In this document: positions 747-64,000 of the stretch, one piece after another
Layout of the letters: the number at the start of each line of letters is the position of its first letter
Position numbering within the stretch: the stretch's first letter is position 1
DNA from: Actinomycetales bacterium
GTDB lineage: Bacteria > Actinomycetota > Actinomycetes > S36-B12
Assembly: GCA_018970025.1 (NCBI GenBank)
Contig: JAGWXF010000010.1
Location: forward strand, 12,133 to 76,132
Direction of reading: 5' to 3'
Length of the DNA: 64,000 bases
Position numbers and translations under genes: made by a program
The notes under the pieces: model-generated
Databases searched by the model: none
What the model was told of the DNA's origin: nothing
Seen by the model: the letters and a program-made list of their open reading frames with translations, nothing else

Positions 747-2143
747 CCACCACACCTCAGTACGTCACCGAGTTCGGCGCCGACGCGCTCGGCAATGCGG
801 CCCGCGATCACCTCTGGATGCACTTCACCCGGCACTCGGGCTACTACGAGGGCGGCCATGTGCCCGTAATCGTCCGCGGCGAGGGCCCGTATATCTGGGA
901 CGACCGCGGCAAGCGCTACTTCGACGGCCTTGCCGGGCTGTTCGTCGTGCAGATCGGCCACGGCCGGCGGGAGCTCGCCCAGGCCAGCGCACGGCAGGCA
1001 GAGGAACTGGCCTTCTTCCCGCTGTGGTCCTACGCCCATCCGCGCGCCATCGAGCTGGCCGAGCGCCTTGCCGGCTACGCCCCCGGCGACCTGAACCGCG
1101 TCTTCTTCACCACCGGCGGCGGCGAGGCGGTCGAGAGCGCCTGGAAGCTGGCCAAGCAGTACTTCAAGCTGACCGGCAAGCCGACCAAGCACAAGGTCAT
1201 CAGCCGCTCGGTCGCCTATCACGGCACCCCGCAGGGTGCCCTGTCGATCACCGGCATTCCCAGCGCCAAGATCCCCTTCGAGCCGCTGGTCCCGGGCGGG
1301 CGGAAGGTGCCGAACACGAACTTCTACCGGGCCCCGCTGGAGTTCCGGCAGGACGAGAAGGCATTCGGCCTGTGGGCAGCCGATCGGATCGCGGAGGCGA
1401 TCGAGTTCGAGGGTCCGGACAGCGTCGCAGCGGTCTTCCTGGAGCCAGTGCAGAACTCAGGCGGATGCTTCCCGCCTCCCCCCGGGTACCTGGAGCGCGT
1501 CCGCGAGATCTGCGATCAGTACGACGTGCTGTTCGTGGCAGACGAGACGATCTGCGCGTTCGGACGCATCGGCGACATGTTCGCGATGAACCGCTTCGGG
1601 GTCACGCCCGACATCCTGACCTGCGCCAAGGGGCTGACCTCCGGCTACGCCCCCCTGGGCGCGATGATCGTCAGCGACCGGCTGTTCGAGCCCTACAAGC
1701 ACGGATCGAACTCCTTCCTGCATGGCTACACCTGGGGCGGTCACCCGGTCGCCGCGGCCGTGGCGCTGGCCAACCTGGACATCTTCGAGCGCGAGGGCAT
1801 CAACGAGCATGTCGTCGCGAATGAGGGTGCCTTCCGCCGGACCCTGGAGAAGCTCAGCGACCTGCCCATCGTCGGGGACATCCGCGGTGCCGGCTTCTTC
1901 TACGGCATCGAGCTGGTGAAGGACAAGGCCACGCGGGAGACATTCAATGACGACGAGTGCGAGCGGCTCCTGCGGGGCTTCCTGTCCAAGGCGCTGTTCG
2001 ACAACGGCCTGTACTGCCGTGCCGATGACCGTGGCGACCCGGTCGTCCAGCTCGCGCCGCCACTGATCTGCGGACAGGCGGAGTTCGACGAGATGGAGCA
2101 AATCCTGCGAGCGACGCTGACAGAGGCATGGAGCGTTCTGTGA
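743..2143 (+). CDS. class-III (omega/putrescine-type) PLP-dependent aminotransferase
   Basis: Frame of ORF 110..2143, trimmed to ATG 743 (alternative 731). Motifs FFTTGGGEAVESAWKLAKQY, FVADETICAFGRIG and LTCAKGLTSGYAPLG (PLP lysine) are typical of the family. Confidence 0.9.
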   Translation: MTTTPQYVTEFGADALGNAARDHLWMHFTRHSGYYEGGHVPVIVRGEGPYIWDDRGKRYFDGLAGLFVVQIGHGRRELAQASARQAEELAFFPLWSYAHPRAIELAERLAGYAPGDLNRVFFTTGGGEAVESAWKLAKQYFKLTGKPTKHKVISRSVAYHGTPQGALSITGIPSAKIPFEPLVPGGRKVPNTNFYRAPLEFRQDEKAFGLWAADRIAEAIEFEGPDSVAAVFLEPVQNSGGCFPPPPGYLERVREICDQYDVLFVADETICAFGRIGDMFAMNRFGVTPDILTCAKGLTSGYAPLGAMIVSDRLFEPYKHGSNSFLHGYTWGGHPVAAAVALANLDIFEREGINEHVVANEGAFRRTLEKLSDLPIVGDIRGAGFFYGIELVKDKATRETFNDDECERLLRGFLSKALFDNGLYCRADDRGDPVVQLAPPLICGQAEFDEMEQILRATLTEAWSVL

Positions 2144-2898
2144 ACGCTCAGGGTGAGCCCGAGCGTGCTGTGAACGCTCAGGGTGAGCCCGAGCGTGCTG
2201 TGAACGCTCAGGGTGAGCCCGAGCGTTCTGTGAACGCTCCCGGGTCGACGGAGCGTACGCGGATCCGGAGGATCCCCGAGCGGACGGTCCAGGACAGGAC
2301 GGTGCTCCACGCGATCCTGGACGCAGGACTGGTCGCGCACGTCGCAGTGCAGGACGAGTCCGGTCAGCCGTATGTCATCCCGGTCGGCTACGGCCGTAGA
2401 GGTGACGACGTGCTCTTCCATGGCTCGACCGGATCACGGCTATTCCGCAGCCTGGCTGCTGGCCAGCCGACCTGCCTGACGGTCACCCTCCTCGATGGCC
2501 TGGTCCTGGCCCGCAGTGCCTTCGAGTCGAGCATGAACTACCGGTCGGTGATGGTGCTCGGGGTCGCGCGCCGGCTGAGCGGGGATGACGAGCTCGATGC
2601 GCTCCGGGCGATCTCCGAGCACCTGCTGCCCGGGCGCTGGGCGGATATCAGGCACCCGTCGGCGAAGGAGCGGGCAGCGACCCTGACCCTGGCCCTGCCG
2701 CTTGACGAGTGCTCGGTCAAGGTGCGCACGGGTGGTCCGGAGGATCTCGAGGAGGATGTCGCTGACCCGGTGTTCGGCGGTGTCTGGGCCGGGCACGTGC
2801 CGCTCACCGAGAGCTTCGGCGCTCCGGTCCCCTGCGACAACAACACCGCAGGGCTGACGCCCACGTACATCGAAACCTGGCATCGGCCGGCACCATGA
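2128..2898 (+). CDS. pyridoxamine 5'-phosphate oxidase-family (flavin-binding split-barrel) protein
   Basis: RIPERTVQDRTVLHAILDAGLVAHVAVQDESGQPYVIPVGY...FHGSTGSRL resembles the PNPOx-like family. The start is ambiguous: ATG 2128 adds 34 aa of ER(S/A)VNAQGEP repeats, while GTG 2230 gives a family-typical N-terminus. The stop overlaps the next ATG (ATGA at 2895). Confidence 0.8.
   Translation: MERSVNAQGEPERAVNAQGEPERAVNAQGEPERSVNAPGSTERTRIRRIPERTVQDRTVLHAILDAGLVAHVAVQDESGQPYVIPVGYGRRGDDVLFHGSTGSRLFRSLAAGQPTCLTVTLLDGLVLARSAFESSMNYRSVMVLGVARRLSGDDELDALRAISEHLLPGRWADIRHPSAKERAATLTLALPLDECSVKVRTGGPEDLEEDVADPVFGGVWAGHVPLTESFGAPVPCDNNTAGLTPTYIETWHRPAP
2131..2250. repeat. 30-bp tandem repeat, 3 near-identical units plus 1 diverged unit
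   Basis: The unit gagcgtKctgtgaacgctcagggtgagccc occurs at 2131-2160, 2161-2190 and 2191-2220. A fourth unit at 2221-2250 is diverged in its 3' half. The next gagcgt follows at 2251. Confidence 0.95.
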
Positions 2899-4322
2899 GC
2901 GCACCCACCGCCACGAGTTCATCGGGCGGCCGCCTGTCAGGCGTCGCGCACCCGGGACGCTCCCTGTGGTCCGACACCCTTCCTGCCGACCTGGATACTC
3001 CCATCGGTGCACCCCTGGATGGGGATAGCGACGTCGATATCGCCATCGTGGGCGGCGGGTTCACCGGCCTGTGGACCGCCTACTACCTGCTGGGGCGCGA
3101 CCCGAGCCTGCGCATCGCGGTGCTGGAGGCGCAGCACGTGGGGTTCGGGGCCAGCGGCCGCAACGGCGGCTGGGCATCGGCCCTGTTCCCGGTCAGCCTG
3201 GCCGCCCTGGCACGGCGCTCCTCACGGGAGGCGGCGATTCGCCAGAAGCATGCGATGCATGCGTCCGTGGCGGAGATCGGACGAGTGGCGGCAGCCGAGG
3301 GCTGGCAGATCGACTGGCACCAAGGCGGGACGGTCACCTTCGCCCGTACCCCGCTGCAGTGGGCGGCAGCGCAGGATGAGATCGCGAGCCTGCGCGCATG
3401 GGGCTTCGGCGAGGCCGATTACGCGCTCCTCGATCGAGAGCAGGCTCGGGCGAAGGCCAGGGCAACCGACGTCATCGGAGCCACGTTCACCCCGCACTGC
3501 GCCGCGATCCATCCGCTGAAGCTGGTGCGGAGCCTCGGGCTCCGGGTGCGGGGTCTCGGCGGGCGCGTCCACGAGGGCACCCAGGTGACCCGCATCGAGC
3601 CGGGGGTCGTACATACGCGCCAGGGCAGGGTGCGCGCCGAGACCATTGTCCGGGCAACCGAGGCCTTCACCAGAACCCTCGACGGTCACCCTCGCACCAT
3701 CGCCCCGGTCTACTCGCTGATGATCGCGACCGAGCCCCTGCCACAGGATGCCTGGGACCGTATCGGCATGGCCGACCGTCCGACCTTCAGCGATGGGCGC
3801 CACCTGATCATCTACGGCCAGCGCACGGCGGATGGGCGGCTTGCCTTCGGCGGGCGCGGAGCGCCCTACCACTTCGGCTCCCGAGTCTCTGCGGGGCAGG
3901 ACGTGAACGCCCGCGTGCAGGAGGGGCTGGCCCAGACCCTGCACGAGCTGTTCCCCGCTATCGGCGACGCATCGATCACCCATGCCTGGGGCGGGCCCGT
4001 GGGCATCGCCCGCGACTGGTGGGCCTCCTGCGGCCTGGATCGCACGACCGGGCTGGCCTGGGCGGGAGGCTATGTCGGCGATGGGGTTGGGACGTCCAAC
4101 CTCGCCGGGCGCACCCTCGCGGACCTCATCCTGCGCCGGGATACCGACCTGACCTGCCTGCCCTGGGTCGGTCATCGCTCTCGGAAATGGGAGCCGGAGC
4201 CGTTCCGCTGGCTTGGCACCAACCTGGGCCTGCGGGTCATCACGAGCGCCGACCGCATCGAGGCACGCACGGGCAGGCCGACCAGGCGCGCAGCCATCTT
4301 CGGACGGGCCCTCGGCCACTGA
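2895..4322 (+). CDS. FAD-dependent oxidoreductase (DAO family, gamma-glutamylputrescine-oxidase-like)
   Basis: Dinucleotide-binding motif VDIAIVGGGFTGLWTAYYL near the N-terminus, and a DAO-family length of 475 aa. Confidence 0.9.
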   Translation: MSAPTATSSSGGRLSGVAHPGRSLWSDTLPADLDTPIGAPLDGDSDVDIAIVGGGFTGLWTAYYLLGRDPSLRIAVLEAQHVGFGASGRNGGWASALFPVSLAALARRSSREAAIRQKHAMHASVAEIGRVAAAEGWQIDWHQGGTVTFARTPLQWAAAQDEIASLRAWGFGEADYALLDREQARAKARATDVIGATFTPHCAAIHPLKLVRSLGLRVRGLGGRVHEGTQVTRIEPGVVHTRQGRVRAETIVRATEAFTRTLDGHPRTIAPVYSLMIATEPLPQDAWDRIGMADRPTFSDGRHLIIYGQRTADGRLAFGGRGAPYHFGSRVSAGQDVNARVQEGLAQTLHELFPAIGDASITHAWGGPVGIARDWWASCGLDRTTGLAWAGGYVGDGVGTSNLAGRTLADLILRRDTDLTCLPWVGHRSRKWEPEPFRWLGTNLGLRVITSADRIEARTGRPTRRAAIFGRALGH

Positions 4323-4333
4323 GGCCCACTGGG

Positions 4334-5551
4334 CTAGCGCAGGCGAACTGCTGCTGAGCGGACCTCCTCGATCGTCGGCGCGCCAATGAGCTGCATGGTG
4401 GTTCGGACCTCCTTGGCCAGGATGTCGACCACTCGGCGCACGCCATCCTCGCCGCCGGCCATGAGGCCGTACAGGTAGGCGCGGCCGACGAGCACACCGC
4501 GCGCGCCGAACGCCAGGGCAGCGACGATGTCGGTGCCGGACATGATCCCGCCGTCGATGTAGACCTCGGTGCGGTCGCCGACCTCGACGGCGACCTGGGG
4601 CAGGATCTCCAGCGGGACGTTGCCCATGTCGGCCTGGCGTCCGCCATGGTTCGACAGCACGATCGCGTCGACCCCGAGATCAGCGCAGGCCGTGGCGTCC
4701 TCAACGCTCTGGATCCCCTTGACGACCACCTTGCCCGCCCAGTTCGATCGGATCCAGGCGATATCGGCACCGGTGATGCCGGGGTCGAAGATCCGGGTCA
4801 GCAAATCCCCCACGGTGCCACCGGTGGAGTCCAGGGAGGCGAAGGTCAGCGGCTCGGTCGTGAGGACGTCGAACCACCAGCGCGGATGAGTCGCCATCTC
4901 GGCCATCGTCGACAGGCGCAGCCGGGGCGGGATGGTGAGCCCATTGCGCACCTCGCGGCGCCGGATCCCGCCCACCGCGGTGTCGACGGTGAGGATGAGG
5001 GCGTCGAATCCGCTGGCCTGGGCGCGGCGCATGAGATCCTCCGCACGCTCCCGCTCGCGCGAGACGTACAGCTGGAACCACCGACGAGTGTCCGGGCTCT
5101 CCTGGGCGAGCCGCTCGATCGACGTCGTCCCCAGCGTCGACAGGCCGTAGGCGATGCCGGCCTCTGCGGCAACCCGTGCGACGGCAGGCTCGCCGACGGA
5201 CTGCATCATCCGGGTGAAGCCAGTCGGCGCGAGGATGAACGGAAGGGCGTTGGGCCGGCCGAGAACCTCGATGCCCATGTCCACCTCGGCGACATCGCGC
5301 ATGACCCGCGGGGTGAACTCCACCCGTCGATAGGCATCTCGGCTGCGATCCAGGCTCGACTCCGACATGGCAGCACCGTCGGTGTAGTCGAAGACCGCCT
5401 TGGGCACGCGCTTGCGGGCCAGTTCGCGGACGTCCCAGACGCTCGCGCAGCGCTCCAGCCGGCGCTGCAGCCTGGACTTGCTTCGATCAGGGGTCCCGAT
5501 GAGCGGGAGGATGTCAGCCGGCCTGGGAACTCGTCGGCGCATCGCCGCCAT
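4334..5551 (-). CDS. FMN-dependent alpha-hydroxy-acid dehydrogenase/oxidase (L-lactate dehydrogenase LldD-like)
   Basis: Family motifs VVKGIQSVEDA and IVLSNHGGRQ. It is the last gene of the rhamnose operon, 12 nt downstream of the rhaB stop. Confidence 0.9.
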   Translation of the reverse strand: MAAMRRRVPRPADILPLIGTPDRSKSRLQRRLERCASVWDVRELARKRVPKAVFDYTDGAAMSESSLDRSRDAYRRVEFTPRVMRDVAEVDMGIEVLGRPNALPFILAPTGFTRMMQSVGEPAVARVAAEAGIAYGLSTLGTTSIERLAQESPDTRRWFQLYVSRERERAEDLMRRAQASGFDALILTVDTAVGGIRRREVRNGLTIPPRLRLSTMAEMATHPRWWFDVLTTEPLTFASLDSTGGTVGDLLTRIFDPGITGADIAWIRSNWAGKVVVKGIQSVEDATACADLGVDAIVLSNHGGRQADMGNVPLEILPQVAVEVGDRTEVYIDGGIMSGTDIVAALAFGARGVLVGRAYLYGLMAGGEDGVRRVVDILAKEVRTTMQLIGAPTIEEVRSAAVRLR

Positions 5552-19149: not shown

Positions 19150-20325
19150 CTAGCGGTACGCAGGGATGCCGGTCAGGGCCTCGCCGATGACCAGCGTGTG
19201 CATCTCGTTGGTTCCCTCGTAGGTGAAGACCGACTCCAGGTTGTTCATGTGCCGGATCACGGGGTACTCCAGGGTGATGCCGTTCCCGCCGAGGATGCCG
19301 CGGCACTCCCGCGCGATGGCCAGGGCCTCGCGCGCGTTGTTGAGCTTGCCCAGGCTGATCTGCTCCGGCCTGATGAGGTGCTCGTCCTTCAGCCGGCCCA
19401 GGTGCAGGGCCAGCAGCATGCCCTTGCCCAGCTCCAGGGCCATGTCGGCGAGCTTGCGCTGGGTCAGCTGATAGGAGGCGATCGGCTCGTCGAACTGGAT
19501 GCGGTTCAGGGAGTAGTCGATCGCCGTCTGCAGGCAGTCCCGAGCGGCGCCCAATGTACCGAAGGCGATGCCGAACCGAGCCTCGTTCAGGCACGACAGC
19601 GGCCCGCGCAGGCTCGCCACGCCTGGCAGTACCGCGTCCTTGGGCAGCCGCACCTCATCGAAGACCAGTTCACTGGTCACCGAGGCGCGCAGCGACATCT
19701 TCCTGTGGATCTCGCGTGCGGTGAAGCCGGGAGTGTCGGTGGGGACGATGAACCCGCGGATCCCGCCATCAGTGCGGGCCCAGACCACGGCGACATCGGC
19801 GACACTGCCGTTGGTGATCCACATCTTGGAGCCGTTCAGGATCCAGTCATCGCCATCCTGCTTGGCATTGGTGAGCATCCCACTGGGGTTGGAGCCGAAG
19901 TCCGCCTCGGTCAGGCCGAAGCACCCGATCGTCTCCCCTGCAGCCATCTGCGGAAGCCACTGCTCCTTGTGCTCCGATGACCCGAAGGCGTGGATGGCGT
20001 ACATGGCCAGCGAGCCCTGGACGCTCACCAGGGACCGCAGCCCGGAGTCGCCCGCCTCGAGTTCCAAGCAGGCCAGGCCATAGGCGGTCGCGGACATTCC
20101 CGCGCAGCCGTAGCCCTCCAGGTGCATTCCCAGGACGCCGAGCTGGCCGAGCTCGCGGGCCAGCTCGCGGGCTGGGATCTGACCGGCCTCGAACCAGTCG
20201 GCAATCTCCGGCTTGATCCGGTCGTCGACGTAGGAGCGCACCACATCTCGGATCGATCGCTCCTCCTCGCTGAGCAGGTGGTCGATCGCGAACAGACCGA
20301 ACGGGGACTGCGGGGCCTTGGCCAT
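19150..20325 (-). CDS. gcdH: acyl-CoA dehydrogenase, glutaryl-CoA dehydrogenase-like
   Basis: 391 aa. GCFGLTEADFGSNPSGM, WITNGSVADVAVVWA and C-terminal YEGTNEMHTLVIG resemble GcdH. Confidence 0.8.
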   Translation of the reverse strand: MAKAPQSPFGLFAIDHLLSEEERSIRDVVRSYVDDRIKPEIADWFEAGQIPARELARELGQLGVLGMHLEGYGCAGMSATAYGLACLELEAGDSGLRSLVSVQGSLAMYAIHAFGSSEHKEQWLPQMAAGETIGCFGLTEADFGSNPSGMLTNAKQDGDDWILNGSKMWITNGSVADVAVVWARTDGGIRGFIVPTDTPGFTAREIHRKMSLRASVTSELVFDEVRLPKDAVLPGVASLRGPLSCLNEARFGIAFGTLGAARDCLQTAIDYSLNRIQFDEPIASYQLTQRKLADMALELGKGMLLALHLGRLKDEHLIRPEQISLGKLNNAREALAIARECRGILGGNGITLEYPVIRHMNNLESVFTYEGTNEMHTLVIGEALTGIPAYR

Positions 20326-53615: not shown

Positions 53616-54431
53616 TCAGTGATCCGGGCCCGCGACCGTGTCGCCCAGTGGTGCCGTGCCGCTGCTCGCCTGGTCATGGGGATCGGCTGTGCGCTCACCC
53701 GATGACCCGACCAGGCCTGATGACCCGACCAGGCCTACCAGCACCTGCTCCAGTGCGGAGTACGCCTCCTGGGCCGCCTGCTGCTCGGCGACCTTCTTCG
53801 ACGGACCCCACCCCTGGCCCAGGACGCGGCCGCCCACCCGCGCGAGCGCGTGGAACTCCTTCTGGTGATCCGGGCCGGAGTCCTCGACGAGGTACTCGGG
53901 AACCCCGAGATCGGCACCCGCGGCCGCTTCCTGCAGCGAGGTCTTCCAGTCCAGCCCAGCACCGAGCTGGGCCGAGCGCTGGATGAGCGGATCGAAGCAC
54001 CGATGGATGAACGCCGACACCCGGGCCAGGTCCGTCGACAGATGGGCCGCCCCGATGATCGCCTCCATCGCGTCGGCGAGGATCGAGGCCTTGTCGCGCC
54101 CGCCGGTTCCCTCCTCGCCGCGGCCCAGCAGCAGGTACTCCCCGATCCCCAGGGCGCGCGCGAGGTCTGCCAGCGCACGGGCATTGACCACCGCGGCCCG
54201 GAGCTTGGCCAGCTGGCCCTCGGGCAGGTCGGGGTAGGTCCGATAGAGCGTGTCGGTCACGACGATCCCCAGGACGGCATCGCCGAGGAACTCCAGCCGC
54301 TCGTTGTGCGGGATGGCGCCGTGCTCGTAGGCGTAGGAGCGATGGGTCAGCGCCTGGTCGAGCAGTGCGATGTCGACGTCCAGCCCGAGCTCGGCTCGCA
54401 GCCGCTCCAGGTCCGATCCTCGGTCGGTCAT
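53616..54431 (-). CDS. rnc: ribonuclease III
   Basis: Trimmed to ATG 54431 (ATGA overlap with the plsX stop). Signature [12 protein letters not shown], a dsRBD, and a C-terminal extension. Confidence 0.9.
53701..53736. repeat. perfect 18-bp tandem duplication in the rnc 3' extension
   Basis: gatgacccgaccaggcct occurs twice (53701-53718 and 53719-53736), encoding [12 protein letters not shown]. Confidence 0.95.
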
Positions 54432-60319: not shown

Positions 60320-62059
60320 CTACTCCACGCCGATGATCAGCGGCCACAGCCGCTGGCCGCCGTCGAGCTCGGTGACCTCCACGAACGGATGCTCGCCCGC
60401 CAGCCACGCGGTGACACTGCGACGAAGGTCCAGGTCGGCCTCCGATCCGAAGACGCAGGTGACCAGCTCCCCGCCGACCGCCAGCATCCCGCCCAGGATC
60501 CGCAGGGACACGTCGACCAGTGACGGGCCAACCAGGGCGATGTCGCCATCGACGATGCCCAGCACATCGCCCGGCTCGCAGGGCCCGGCGGTGGTGCGGG
60601 CACGACGGGTGGCCATGGTGATCGCGGCATAGCGCGTTGCTCCGCAGGCCCTGGTCATGGCAGCGGCGTCCTCGTCGAAGGCCACGCCCACGTCGTGGAC
60701 GGCGATCGACGCCAGCGACTGCACGACCGCCCGGGTCGGTATGACGGCGACCCGGACGCCGGCCTCGAGGGCCGCTCGCGCGGCAACCTCCGCCACCGGC
60801 AGGGTGTCCGTGTCGCCGGGCAGTACCAGCACCTCCTCGACGCCGGTATCGGTGATCGCGTGGAGGATCTCAGCTGCTGACGGACGCCGCCCAGGGGCGG
60901 CCACCACGACGCGGACCCCGAGGCCATGCATCAGTGCCGTGATCCCCGGCCCGTGCGCGACCGCGACGACTGCCCGATCGGGCGACCGGAGCTCCGCCGA
61001 GGCCCGGACGCTCGGGGCTGCCGAGCGCGCCGTCGCCGTGAGCCCGGACACCCTGATGTCGTGCGCACGGCCGACCGCCATGCCGGCCTCGATGGCCGCT
61101 CCCGCGTCATCTGCGTGCACGTGCACGGACCACAGGCTGTCGTCGCCGGCGATGACCACGCTTTCCCCCAGGCCGTCCAGGCGAGCTCGCAGCGCGTCGA
61201 TGTCGGCGGCCGGCGCGTCGAGCAGGTACATGACCTCGAATGCTGGCCCGTGCCCTGCCTGGTCGAGGGCCACCGTCCCGGGGCATGCCCGCGACCTGAG
61301 CGCGGCACTCGCGCCAGCCGGCTGGGAGCCGGTCAGCCGCCTCCTGCCCTGGAGCAGGTCGAGGATGGCGTCCAGGATCACCACGAAGGCACGGCCGCCC
61401 GCGTCGACGACACCGGCCGAGCGCAGGGCCTCGAGTTGCTCCGGGGTCCGCTGCAGCGCCTGCCGAGCACTTCCGGCAGCCGCACCAAGGACGCCGACCA
61501 GCGAGCCTGGTGGCGCGGACCTCGCTGCAGCCGCGGCGGATCGCGCCACCGTGAGGATGGTTCCCTCGACAGGCCGGCTCACCGCCCGGTAGGCGCGATC
61601 GGCGGCCGCCGACAGGATCGAGACCGCATCCCCGGCCTCGAGCATCCGACCGCCGGGCAAGCGGGCGACCGCATCGCTGACCCCGCCGAGGTACTCCGCG
61701 AGGATGACCCCCGAGTTGCCCCGTGCCCCGAGCAGGGCACCCCGGGCCATCGCATGCACGGCAGCCGGCAGCGGGAGGCCATCGTCGAGTGCCTCGTCGA
61801 GCGCCATGCATGCTGACTGCGCCGTTAGGTAGACGTTCGTCCCGGTGTCGCCGTCGGGCACCGGGAAGACGTTGAGGGCATCGATCTCGGCGCGAGCCTC
61901 TCCGAGGGCAGCAAGCACGCCGTGCGCCCAGGCGCGCACACCCGGCGCCGCAGCCCCACCGAGCGGCTCACCCGGCGCCGCAGCCCCACCGAGCGGCTCA
62001 CCCGGCGCCGCAGCCCCACCGAGCGGCTCACCCGGCGCCGCACTGGCCATCAGCGGCAC
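60320..62059 (-). CDS. DAK2 domain-containing protein (YloV-like)
   Basis: [20 protein letters not shown]2 signature and a large C-terminal YloV-type domain. The N-terminus carries a decapeptide repeat, so the exact start is uncertain. Confidence 0.85.
61939..62042. repeat. 30-bp tandem repeat, about 3.4 perfect units
   Basis: The unit cacccggcgccgcagccccaccgagcggct occurs at 61939-61968, 61969-61998 and 61999-62028, with a partial unit to about 62042. It encodes ([10 protein letters not shown])n on the minus strand. Confidence 0.95.
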
Positions 62060-62450: not shown

Positions 62451-62996
62451 TCAGTGGGCTGGCTGGAGCTCGCGCCCGGCCTGGGCCTTCGACGCGCAGA
62501 CTTCGGCGATCACGGCGGTCCAGGTGCCAGACGGCGCATGGACGGTCACCGACGTCCCGACCTCGGCGCCGAGGATGGCAGCACCGAGCGGTGAGGCGAT
62601 GGAGATTCGCTCGTCGTCGAGGAACGCCTCGCTCGGGTGCACCGGACGAATCCACTCGCGGGCGCCGTCTGGGAGCTGCAGCAGGACGTGTGCCCCCAAG
62701 GTAACCCGGTCAGAGCGGTCGTCGGGGGACATCACGACAGCCTCGGCGAGCAGCGCCTCGAAGGCGTCGGCCTCGGCAAGCAGCGCCTCGAAGGCGGCCA
62801 CGTCGCGCTCGTCGCGATCCTGGTCGACCAGCAGGGGCCGTAGCTGCGGAAGCCTGCGCTCGCGAATGTCACAGATCCGCTCCTCGATGAGGCGGAAGCC
62901 ATCCGGCGTGAGCACCGTCTGGCGGGTCGGGTCGATCACGCGCTGACGGCTGAGCTTGCGTCGGGCTCCCCCGGTCGTGCCTTGCTTGCGTGCCAT
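62451..62996 (-). CDS. GreA/GreB-family C-terminal-domain protein (Rnk-like regulator)
   Basis: Trimmed to ATG 62996. C-terminal domain ISIASPLGAAILGAEVGTSVTVHAPSG matches the GreA/B FKBP-like fold signature. Confidence 0.75.
   Translation of the reverse strand: MARKQGTTGGARRKLSRQRVIDPTRQTVLTPDGFRLIEERICDIRERRLPQLRPLLVDQDRDERDVAAFEALLAEADAFEALLAEAVVMSPDDRSDRVTLGAHVLLQLPDGAREWIRPVHPSEAFLDDERISIASPLGAAILGAEVGTSVTVHAPSGTWTAVIAEVCASKAQAGRELQPAH
62741..62800. repeat. 30-bp tandem duplication inside the GreA-like gene
   Basis: cctcggcgagcagcgcctcgaaggcgtcgg (62741-62770) and cctcggcaagcagcgcctcgaaggcggcca (62771-62800). Encodes AFEALLAEAD-AFEALLAEA. Confidence 0.9.
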
Positions 62997-62997
62997 G

Positions 62998-64000
62998 TCA
63001 TTCCTCTCCTTCGTGGTGATCGCGTGCTTCATGGTCCTGTCGTGGTGGTTGGCCATCTCGTGGTGGTTGGCCTTCTCGTCGTGCGCTCGGCACGGCTGCC
63101 TGGAATGGGTGAGCGAGGTCCTCCTCGGACGGGCCGGGAACCTGTCGGCTCGACCGGGTCGAGATGAGCGAGGCGATGATCGATGCGGCGATCACTGCCA
63201 CGACGACCGACAGGCTCACCAGGGTCGGGATCTTGATCCACGCGTGGCTGACGATCATCTTGACTCCGACCCAGGCGAGCACGACCGACAGCCCCAGCTT
63301 CAGGTACACGAACCGGTGAATCAGGTCGGCGAGCAGGAAGTACATGGCGCGCAGGCCCAGGATCGCCAGGGCGTTGCTGGCAAAGACCAGGAACGGCTCT
63401 TGCGTTACCGCGAAGATCGCCGGGATGGAGTCGACCGCGAAGATGATGTCGGTGACCTCGATCAGGACGAGCACCGCGAGCAGCGGAGTCGCGATCAGGG
63501 CGGAGCTGCGCCGGGCCCAGAACTTCTGGCCGTCATAGGAGTCCGTCATCGGGACCAGCCGGCGGAAGACGGCGAGCGTTCGCGACTTCGAGGGGTCGAT
63601 GTGCTCATTGCGCTGCCGCATCATCTTGATGCCGGTGACGATGAGGAAGGCGCCGAAGACGTACAGGATCCAGGAGAAGCTGGCGATCAGCACCGAGCCG
63701 AGCGCGATGAAGATCGCCCGGAAGACCAGAGCGCCGACGACCCCGTAGAACAGCACGCGATGCTGGACCTGACGAGGTACCAGAAAGGCGCTGAAGATCA
63801 CCGCCCACACGAAGACGTTGTCGACCGCCAGCGATTTCTCGATGACGTACCCGGCGAAGTACTGCATGCCGAACTCGGCGCCGTAGGCCAGCCAGATGCC
63901 CACACCGACAGCGATCCCGATCGCGACCCACAGGCCCGACCAGAGGGCCGCCTCGCGCACCGAGATCTCATGCCCGTCACGATGCATGAACAGGTCGACC
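62998..64000 (-). CDS. terC: TerC family integral membrane protein (5' end beyond right edge)
   Basis: Multi-TM with YVIEKSLAVDNVFVWAVIF and IFAVDSIPAIFAVT motifs. The reading frame stays open to the window edge. Confidence 0.85.
   Translation of the reverse strand, partial: VDLFMHRDGHEISVREAALWSGLWVAIGIAVGVGIWLAYGAEFGMQYFAGYVIEKSLAVDNVFVWAVIFSAFLVPRQVQHRVLFYGVVGALVFRAIFIALGSVLIASFSWILYVFGAFLIVTGIKMMRQRNEHIDPSKSRTLAVFRRLVPMTDSYDGQKFWARRSSALIATPLLAVLVLIEVTDIIFAVDSIPAIFAVTQEPFLVFASNALAILGLRAMYFLLADLIHRFVYLKLGLSVVLAWVGVKMIVSHAWIKIPTLVSLSVVVAVIAASIIASLISTRSSRQVPGPSEEDLAHPFQAAVPSARREGQPPRDGQPPRQDHEARDHHEGEE
63040..63075. repeat. 18-bp tandem duplication in the terC 3' end
   Basis: tcgtggtggttggccatc (63040-63057) and tcgtggtggttggccttc (63058-63075). 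Encodes a duplicated ..GQPPR hexapeptide (EGQPPR-DGQPPR). Confidence 0.9.

Follow-up and report, generated by a model that had tools for sequence, protein, structure and literature searches.

Tandem arrays of short units at operon junctions are known from Mycobacterium, where the loci that carry mycobacterial interspersed repetitive units as variable-number tandem repeats (MIRU-VNTR) go back to Supply et al. 1997 (cited here through PMC3184786 and PMC12548453). According to these two sources, MIRUs are 40-100 bp long and dispersed at ~40-50 loci, they seem to insert, as judged by filled versus empty sites and target duplications, and each has its own small open reading frame (ORF) with its own stop (PMC3184786; PMC12548453). 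Here we analyzed a stretch of 64,000 nt (hereafter, the window) from an Actinomycetales bacterium (GenBank assembly GCA_018970025.1, contig JAGWXF010000010.1, positions 12,133 to 76,132 of the forward strand), in which four head-to-tail 30-nt units at 2131-2250 lie on the boundary between a class-III aminotransferase gene and a gene for a PNPOx-like flavoprotein (PF12900). MIRU-VNTR loci resemble this array in being tandem short units at a co-directional operon junction, in their G+C-rich inverted repeats and in a 4-nt stop/start overlap through which coupling can persist, and both occur in Actinobacteria (PMC3184786; PMC12548453). In contrast to a MIRU, the array unit is 30 nt long, is built from the flanking genes' own codons, occupies a single locus in 64 kb and is open in the downstream frame, so that the protein is extended and no mini-cistron is added. 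Membership among the MIRUs was considered and rejected: the co-directional junction with its 4-nt overlap is shared, and the dispersal (within the window), the size, the foreign origin and the own ORF are not. In position and logic, MIRU-VNTR is nevertheless the closest analogue.

In-frame coding minisatellites and VNTRs arise by slipped-strand mispairing between short direct repeats. The array shares their head-to-tail order, a period that is a multiple of three, a microhomology (GGAGCGT), a partial terminal copy, inner units that are nearly identical, a diverged edge unit and a number of units that differs between lineages. Its units fall within the ~10-100 bp expected of a minisatellite and it stands above chance. 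We class it as an in-frame minisatellite arising by slippage and not as a new kind of system. It differs from coding minisatellites in that the unit spans a gene boundary, comprising one gene's stop and the next gene's start, and in that copy number alters potential reinitiation sites and hairpins and not only a protein linker. Unusually, what is repeated here amounts to an entire coupling module, with stop, start, Shine-Dalgarno (SD) motif and hairpin. No description of a stop/start overlap amplified in this way was found in the open-access texts searched.

Repetitive extragenic palindromic (REP) elements are dispersed palindromes that stabilize upstream mRNA segments. The array resembles them in its stable G+C-rich hairpins, which stand in tandem just past a stop inside an operon, and differs from them in that its palindrome is unique to the locus in the window (apart from one unrelated match with one mismatch) and is probably translated. 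A REP-type dispersed family was rejected on the same finding, that the palindrome occurs only in the array within the window. A phase-variable contingency locus was rejected as well, as 30 nt equal 10 codons and keep the frame and there is no promoter consensus nearby.

The single junction itself resembles NTGA-coupled gene pairs with an inhibitory hairpin at the ribosome-binding site (RBS) (PMC12548453): GTGA is kept in orthologues, the SD motif and start lie in a stable hairpin, and the neighboring operon junctions are ATGA overlaps. Known examples have a single junction, whereas here the junction module occurs four times in series. On balance, we favor the reading that the array is a locally born in-frame minisatellite, in which a 30-nt coupling junction has been copied four times and translation of the flavoprotein reinitiates at GUG 2140. 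Within this reading, the local origin of the array by junction duplication is well supported.

The repeated stop/start junction and its hairpin

Tandem Repeats Finder (TRF) reported an array of period 30 with 3.6 copies, 97% matches and a score of 204 at 2131-2239. Reading the units one by one gave four, as the original prediction had stated, with the fourth diverged: on the forward strand, 2128-2256 reads ATG, GAGCGTTCTGTGAACGCTCAGGGTGAGCCC, GAGCGTGCTGTGAACGCTCAGGGTGAGCCC, GAGCGTGCTGTGAACGCTCAGGGTGAGCCC, GAGCGTTCTGTGAACGCTCCCGGGTCGACG and then GAGCGT, between the unique flanks GAGGCATGGAGCGTTCTGTGAACGCTC and CCCGGGTCGACGGAGCGTACGCGGATCC. A partial fifth unit, GGAGCGT at 2250-2256, trails the array. 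In the frame of the downstream gene, unit 1 (2131-2160, GAGCGTTCTGTGAACGCTCAGGGTGAGCCC) encodes ERSVNAQGEP and holds the real stop/start overlap inside, units 2 (2161-2190) and 3 (2191-2220), which share the sequence GAGCGTGCTGTGAACGCTCAGGGTGAGCCC (30/30), encode ERAVNAQGEP, and unit 4 (2221-2250, GAGCGTTCTGTGAACGCTCCCGGGTCGACG) encodes ERSVNAPGST. The first three units are 29-30/30 identical; the T/G difference between units 1 and 2 exchanges GTT for GTG, both Val in the aminotransferase frame. Unit 4 matches unit 1 at 23/30 positions with every mismatch in its 3' half, which retains the ancestral N-terminal codons (PGST). Because units 2 and 3 are identical, they represent the latest amplification step, and unit 3 probably arose last. 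When as many as 3 mismatches are allowed, the 30-nt unit has no match outside 2131-2220 in the 64 kb searched, and none was obtained in 100 shuffles.

The aminotransferase stop, TGA 2141-2143, falls within the first unit and overlaps the start candidate GTG 2140-2142, forming the GTGA overlap at 2140-2143; in-frame GTGs recur at 2170, 2200 and 2230. The GTGA in every unit, the position of the stop, the four in-frame GTGs and the decapeptide ER(S/A)VNAQGEP had all been given correctly by the original prediction, which also rightly held that a change in copy number would be silent for the upstream gene and in-frame for the downstream one, as the stop lies in unit 1 and 30 nt equal 10 codons. There is no stop codon in the downstream frame within this array or within the arrays of two related metagenomic lineages (L170 and L161) described below.

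Units 1 and 4 contain a perfect 8-bp palindrome, GAGCGTTC-TGT-GAACGCTC, and units 2 and 3 a 6-bp stem plus CCC/GGG. In unit 1, 2131-2138 pairs with 2142-2149 around the loop 2139-2141, so that the SD-like GGAG stands at the foot of the 5' arm, and the 3-nt loop takes in G and U from GUG/UGA. Single units fold at about -12.7 to -16.5 kcal/mol (z -3.1 to -4.3), with unit 1 at -12.7 kcal/mol (z -3.1), unit 2 at -15.7 kcal/mol and the 8-bp hairpin of unit 4 at -16.5 kcal/mol; the RNA of the whole array folds at -88.7 kcal/mol (z -5.7). Such structure is rare at other junctions, since a stem of at least 7 bp across the stop was found in 4/123 single-copy junctions. Windows of 35 nt centered on the stop reached -11.3 kcal/mol or lower in eight of the nine junctions of the clade to which the locus belongs, versus 17% of 120 others. 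The stems differ in sequence and keep their pairing: GAGCGU/ACGCUC in the window, GAGCGC/GCGCUC in L170 and GAGCAU/GUGCUC in L161. Across eight units, 88.9% of cells were paired and in two pairs both partners had changed in a compensatory manner (T-A to C-G and G-C to A-U). This covariation suggests a conserved junction hairpin in the clade, and a hairpin of this kind would fit the RNA-unfolding type of coupling, in which the downstream RBS stays hidden and is exposed by the arrival of the upstream ribosome (PMC12548453).

The regular spacing of the palindromes also raises the question of a bound protein. As 8-3-8 palindromes set 30 bp apart, or about three helical turns, they could serve as operators for an AsnC/Lrp-type or other dimeric protein. 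The first gene of the operon does encode an AsnC/Lrp regulator, and Lrp-family proteins bind phased sites. However, outside the array the window has the palindrome pattern only as one match with one mismatch at 20008, and the part of the operon's 5' region that is present lacks it; the Trp-Ser-Val-Leu codons of the aminotransferase fix the sequence of its 5' arm; and the site is intra-operonic and not at a promoter. Moreover, the drift of the stem sequence between lineages with pairing kept is better explained by an RNA or DNA hairpin than by an operator recognized through its sequence. We consider an operator array very unlikely.

Origin of the array and its history in relatives

We compared the junction with 160 orthologous loci, of which 80 came from species-representative genomes and 80 from metagenomes; junctions of relatives with 65% identity or more, 67 of them distinct, are referred to as close. 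The aminotransferase lies directly upstream of the flavoprotein gene in 154/160 loci. The stop overlap is GTGA in 47 and CTGA in 18 of the 67 close junctions, and the spacing from the stop to the T-x-R-T-R motif of the flavoprotein is 2 mod 3 in 63 of them. The 4-nt overlap that marks coupled NTGA pairs is therefore kept in orthologues of this junction. The commonest spacing is 32 nt (47/154 loci); here it is 107 nt, or 17 + 3 x 30, and a spacing of 17 is present in relatives. Moreover, the single-copy junction of the related locus L162, GAGCGTGCTGTGAACG, equals the 5' half of units 2 and 3 exactly. Because this junction matches the unit's 5' half and the window has the unit at no other place, a local origin is supported. 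The occurrence of GTGA at 47 of the 67 close junctions supports the view of the array as an amplified ancestral translational-coupling junction, as had been proposed from the window alone.

Junctions of the CTGA type occur, for example, in L004, L007, L009, L012 and L013 (Nanopelagicales-type loci). At 11 of the 67 close junctions there is no in-frame ATG, GTG or TTG from 20 nt upstream of the stop to TxRTR; translation in those lineages may begin at a CTG in the overlap, at an uncommon codon such as ATC, or within a longer overlap.

The same comparison bears on whether the array was brought in from elsewhere, as a MIRU-like repeat or one resembling a miniature transposable element with inverted repeats (MITE) that landed on the start codon. 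In favor of this, MIRUs lie at co-directional junctions, in tandem, with G+C-rich inverted repeats and ORF ends that overlap the neighboring genes (PMC3184786; PMC12548453). The 5' 16-19 nt of the unit are, however, orthologous aminotransferase C-terminal codons, and the 3' half of unit 4 corresponds to orthologous PGST N-terminal codons. In addition, there is no further copy in the 64-kb window, the unit is 30 nt and not 40-100 nt long, and the units are stop-free in the downstream frame and hence form no separate small ORFs. Insertion of a mobile repeat is extremely unlikely in our view.

A substrate for local duplication is visible at the edges of the array. The heptamer GGAGCGT occurs at 2130-2136, where its GGAG (2130-2133) doubles as an SD-like motif lying 6 nt ahead of GTG 2140, and again at 2250-2256, 120 nt (4 x 30) from the left copy. 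The left copy is set by the aminotransferase Trp-Ser-Val codons and the right one by the conserved Thr-Glu-Arg codons of the flavoprotein; in a single-copy state the two would sit exactly 30 nt apart. Microhomology of at least 6 nt between the same two places was found at 4/123 other junctions. A palindrome with a short direct repeat on either side is a textbook substrate of replication slippage.

We propose that the single-copy ancestor carried GGAGCGT twice, 30 nt apart, with the 8-bp palindrome between the copies, and that replication slippage or unequal exchange between them would have duplicated the 30-nt segment. In the extra copy, the 3' half would then have changed from PGST to QGEP, and this variant would have been re-amplified stepwise, units 2 and 3 arising last. 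The site presumably keeps expanding and contracting in the clade, with each relative's array homogenized internally. Ongoing expansion and contraction is suggested because the same junction holds three-unit arrays in two related lineages.

These two arrays came to light through the odd N-termini of the homologues P0004 (MSAPDSTEHSVKAPNASEHSVNDVG...) and P0008; at the DNA level (L170 and L161), 30-nt arrays were found that share both junction and phase with the one in the window. The L170 array (TRF, 30 nt x 2.5, 93%) consists of GAGCGCTCTGTGAGCGCTCCCACTGGAGAG, GAGCGCTCTGTGGGCGCTCCCACTGGAGAA and GAGCGCTCTGTGAGTGACGTAGGCACCACC; the three units of L161 (30 nt x 2.5, 79%) are more diverged. In both, the first unit holds the aminotransferase stop. 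In a neighbor-joining tree of ~215 residues, the window shares a clade with L170, L161 and single-copy loci. Seven clade members are single-copy, namely L162 (P0006), P0002, P0003, P0005, P0011, L081 and L087, the last six with direct overlaps at the junction. Besides these seven, ~120 further distinct junctions are free of a 30-nt array, and none of the 160 collection loci has one. The alignment with orthologous loci that had been suggested as a check thus gave three-unit arrays in two lineages and a single copy in seven, and a four-unit array invariant among relatives, which would have spoken for an ordinary domain, is contradicted by 0/160 loci with an array, three units in two lineages and one copy in seven. 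Further array-bearing homologues were sought in two ways: a protein search with the N-terminal 91 residues gave 21 short fragments and no new arrays, and a screen of 141 retrieved proteins for the junction motif E[RH]xV returned only P0004, P0008 and the single-copy P0006.

Units are 28-30/30 identical within a lineage and 16-22/30 between lineages; for the last unit of L170 against that of L161 the figure is 23/30. These identities imply an old duplication in the L170/L161 line followed by recent lineage-specific re-amplification or homogenization. With unit numbers of 4, 3, 3 and 1 across lineages, the junction has gained or lost units at least twice, whichever origin holds for the array in the window, and is a recurring duplication hot spot.

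The arrays of the relatives also bear on whether the repeat, or its copy number, was created by a metagenome assembler. The source is evidently metagenome-assembled, as the matching protein P0001 is labelled 'MAG: Actinomycetales bacterium', and units 2 and 3 are identical. However, the array is only 120 nt long, and the identical pair is bracketed by the distinguishable units 1 and 4 (the T variants, with a diverged 3' half in unit 4). Independent assemblies of two other lineages, moreover, carry arrays at the same junction, and an assembly artefact is most improbable.

Tandem duplications unrelated to this array were noted at the boundary in more distant orthologues. In L147 the two genes are separated by a 15-nt x 3.9 array (2896-2954), and L049 has 29-nt copies 54 nt apart that duplicate N-terminal codons (2716-2798). 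In two Actinospica loci (L073, 2928-3015, and L078, 2943-3009), the start region around the perfect palindrome GAACCCGGGTTC is duplicated, with the copies, 44 nt long in L073 and 23 nt in L078, lying 44 nt apart; L149 shows the same duplicated motif by eye. The duplications in L049 and L078 were missed by TRF and confirmed by a direct-repeat finder. The 5' end of the flavoprotein gene seems generally prone to duplication.

Start codon use and the N-terminal extension

The longest reading of the flavoprotein gene (256 aa) begins at the in-frame ATG 2128-2130, which the original prediction had offered as a start giving a 34-aa extension. This codon consists of the wobble A of Ala GCA and the TG of Trp TGG and is probably not a start. 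The corresponding Ala codon in the 67 close junctions is GCC in 28, GCG in 13, GCT in 12 and GCA in 8, and only GCA gives an ATG. Moreover, SD pairing at ATG 2128 reaches only -2.2 kcal/mol. The proposed 34-aa extension is accordingly unlikely.

Reinitiation at GUG 2140, giving three extra decapeptides, is the most likely course of translation, because GUG 2140 is the first start met and the sole GTG preceded by GGAG, because the other operon junctions also use 4-nt overlaps with weak SD motifs, because the internal GTGs lie in paired regions, and because coupling efficiency falls with extra distance. An added distance of less than 20 nt already lowers coupling efficiency (PMC12548453). The probability of being unpaired is 0.16-0.36 in the start regions of the internal GTGs, with the minimum of 0.16 at GTG 2230. 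Gene callers place the start at the GTGA position in the relatives P0002, P0003 and P0005. On this reading, the hairpin would sequester the SD motif and the start, and a ribosome finishing the aminotransferase would open the structure, stop at UGA 2141-2143 and restart on the overlapping GUG 2140. The product would be a flavoprotein of 252 aa with a 30-residue, probably disordered (ERxVNAQGEP)3 N-terminal tail, and the aminotransferase would be unaltered. In an AlphaFold2 model (mean pLDDT 66.5, moderate overall), residues 1-54 lack regular structure and have low pLDDT, and the predicted extension is most likely a flexible tail.

The family as a whole points to a shorter protein. Its members are ~220-232 aa long, versus 256 aa from ATG 2128; most of 135 retrieved homologues, counting both full-length proteins and fragments, begin 8-17 residues ahead of the RTR motif; and residue 7 of the solved homologue 4ybn (224 aa, E 7.9e-43) aligns with query residue 42, which puts its N-terminus at about residue 36. 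Because homologue lengths, RTR distances and the 4ybn alignment agree, GTG 2230 is the family-typical start, and the original prediction, which had mapped that start to the GTG of the last unit, holds up here. This mapping is the first point in favor of the main rival explanation, namely that translation starts at GTG 2230, or at several GTGs, and that the first three units are an untranslated run of hairpins, a structured 90-nt spacer. Coupling would then be weakened or broken, or the upstream mRNA would be protected from 3'-5' decay in a REP-like manner, and the downstream/upstream ratio would be lowered. The very stable fold of the array is as expected of such a spacer, and structure just past the upstream stop correlates with poorer coupling, according to Chemla et al. 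as cited in PMC12548453.

Several further observations weigh against reinitiation at GUG 2140 in a locally grown array, and the first three of them would suit the spacer. SD pairing is -6.9 kcal/mol at each of the four GTGs and does not separate the start sites. In L170, the second GTG, an internal one, has the strongest SD (-12.6) and is the one that the gene caller picked. The G+C content at third codon positions (GC3) in the downstream frame of the array is 0.62, versus 0.84-0.90 for the genes on either side, so that codon usage bears no mark of long-term translation; GC3 is nonetheless no arbiter of translation here, given the young age of the array and the origin of half its sequence in the other reading frame. 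The sole near-identical protein, P0001 (198 aa, the only member of its cluster), starts downstream of the array at GTG 2302, which is residue 59 of the ATG-2128 reading. As to the origin, the array in the window may share its ancestry with those of L170 and L161 or be separate, the tree resting on ~215 residues, and in L161 and L170 the last unit is followed by CC(A/T)CG, with the 3' microhomology gone, so that a slippage substrate can only be inferred there. The covariation score of the hairpin, 0.19 versus 0.115 in shuffles, comes from a small sample with 7 distinct rows and was reached in 10/500 shuffles. Finally, no conspecific locus was found in the genome and metagenome collections, in which the best protein identity was at most 79%, and copy-number polymorphism was unobserved.

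The start of P0001, 58 codons too far downstream, is probably a gene-calling error caused by the repeat; it leaves out R43, T44, R48 and V54, which are nearly invariant in the family. The spacer, for its part, is opposed by features of the locus itself: accessibility is lowest in the start region of GTG 2230 (P(unpaired) 0.16), this codon is preceded by CGAG in place of GGAG, and GUG 2140 is met first by the terminating ribosome. In addition, the downstream frame is uninterrupted by a stop in all three arrays, which argues weakly for translation, and a scan of 1800-2600 found no promoter or terminator consensus. We regard a structured spacer as distinctly less likely than not to be the explanation, and as the alternative that most needs to be considered beside reinitiation at GUG 2140.

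It seems improbable that the serial hairpin-GUGA modules are a selected translational device and not neutral slippage debris. If this were true, each unit would be a hairpin-hidden reinitiation site, and copy number would set the flavoprotein-to-aminotransferase ratio or produce a ladder of N-terminal isoforms; concerted evolution would keep the array, giving three lineages with 3-4 in-phase units and compensatory stem changes, and the locus would be a natural coupling element adjustable by copy number.

Operon context, other repeats and implications

The two genes that meet at the array belong to an operon on the forward strand that begins with the AsnC/Lrp regulator. The aminotransferase gene (743-2143; class III, omega-type; Pfam Aminotran_3, E 8.6e-87; NCBIfam NF005102, 818.8 bits against a cutoff of 574) starts at ATG 743-745, overlapping the regulator's stop (ATGA 743-746). 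The gene for the PNPOx-like/NimA-like flavoprotein, read from the first GTG, spans 2140-2898 (Pyridox_ox_2, E 4.1e-40); the domain begins at residue 56 of the ATG-2128 reading, the conserved core runs from ~2248, and the stop TGA 2896-2898 overlaps the ATG of the third coupled gene (ATGA 2895-2898), which encodes an FAD-dependent oxidoreductase of the DAO family (2895-4322; Pfam DAO, E 1.4e-54) and is found in the same order in L170 and L162. All three operon junctions, at 743-746, 2140-2143 and 2895-2898, are thus 4-nt overlaps (ATGA, GTGA and ATGA), and SD pairing is weak at both ATGA junctions (-5.5 and -2.8 kcal/mol). A gene for an FMN-dependent alpha-hydroxy-acid dehydrogenase (4334-5551) lies on the opposite strand and converges on the operon. 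To judge from these genes, the cluster may serve the catabolism of an amine or amino acid.

Other short repeats occur in the window. A second 30-bp array (61939-62042, minus strand) has 3.5 copies with 100% identity and encodes a decapeptide repeat right after the start of a FakA/DAK2-like gene (ORF 60320-62059, minus strand), which is divergent from an rpmB-like ORF. The 9-mer GGGTGAGCC is common to this array and the junction array; a meaningful link was rejected, as the 9-mer occurs at 4 independent sites versus ~1.8 expected, and the sharing is treated as chance. A repeat of 30 nt x 1.9 (62740-62796; AFEALLAEAD twice) lies inside a GreA/GreB-C-like ORF, one of 18 nt x 2.4 (63040-63083) in the C-terminal tail of a TerC-family ORF, and a perfect one of 18 nt x 2.0 at 53701-53736. 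Because all repeat periods are multiples of three, they suggest that this genome tolerates or generates short in-frame duplications readily.

Taken together, the array appears to be a biologically ordinary in-frame minisatellite in an uncultured actinobacterium. Its wider interest lies in the coupling junction. Translational coupling is widespread, and its mechanism is still debated between RNA unfolding and ribosome scanning with reinitiation (PMC12548453), and the locus offers a natural allelic series, in which the stop/start-plus-hairpin module is present once, three or four times in orthologous operons. Downstream expression and start use across this series would separate the effects of distance, structure and start-codon choice. 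Arrays of such a kind mislead gene callers. Moreover, a coupling junction can make its own duplication substrate, through the microhomology imposed by its codons together with its palindrome.

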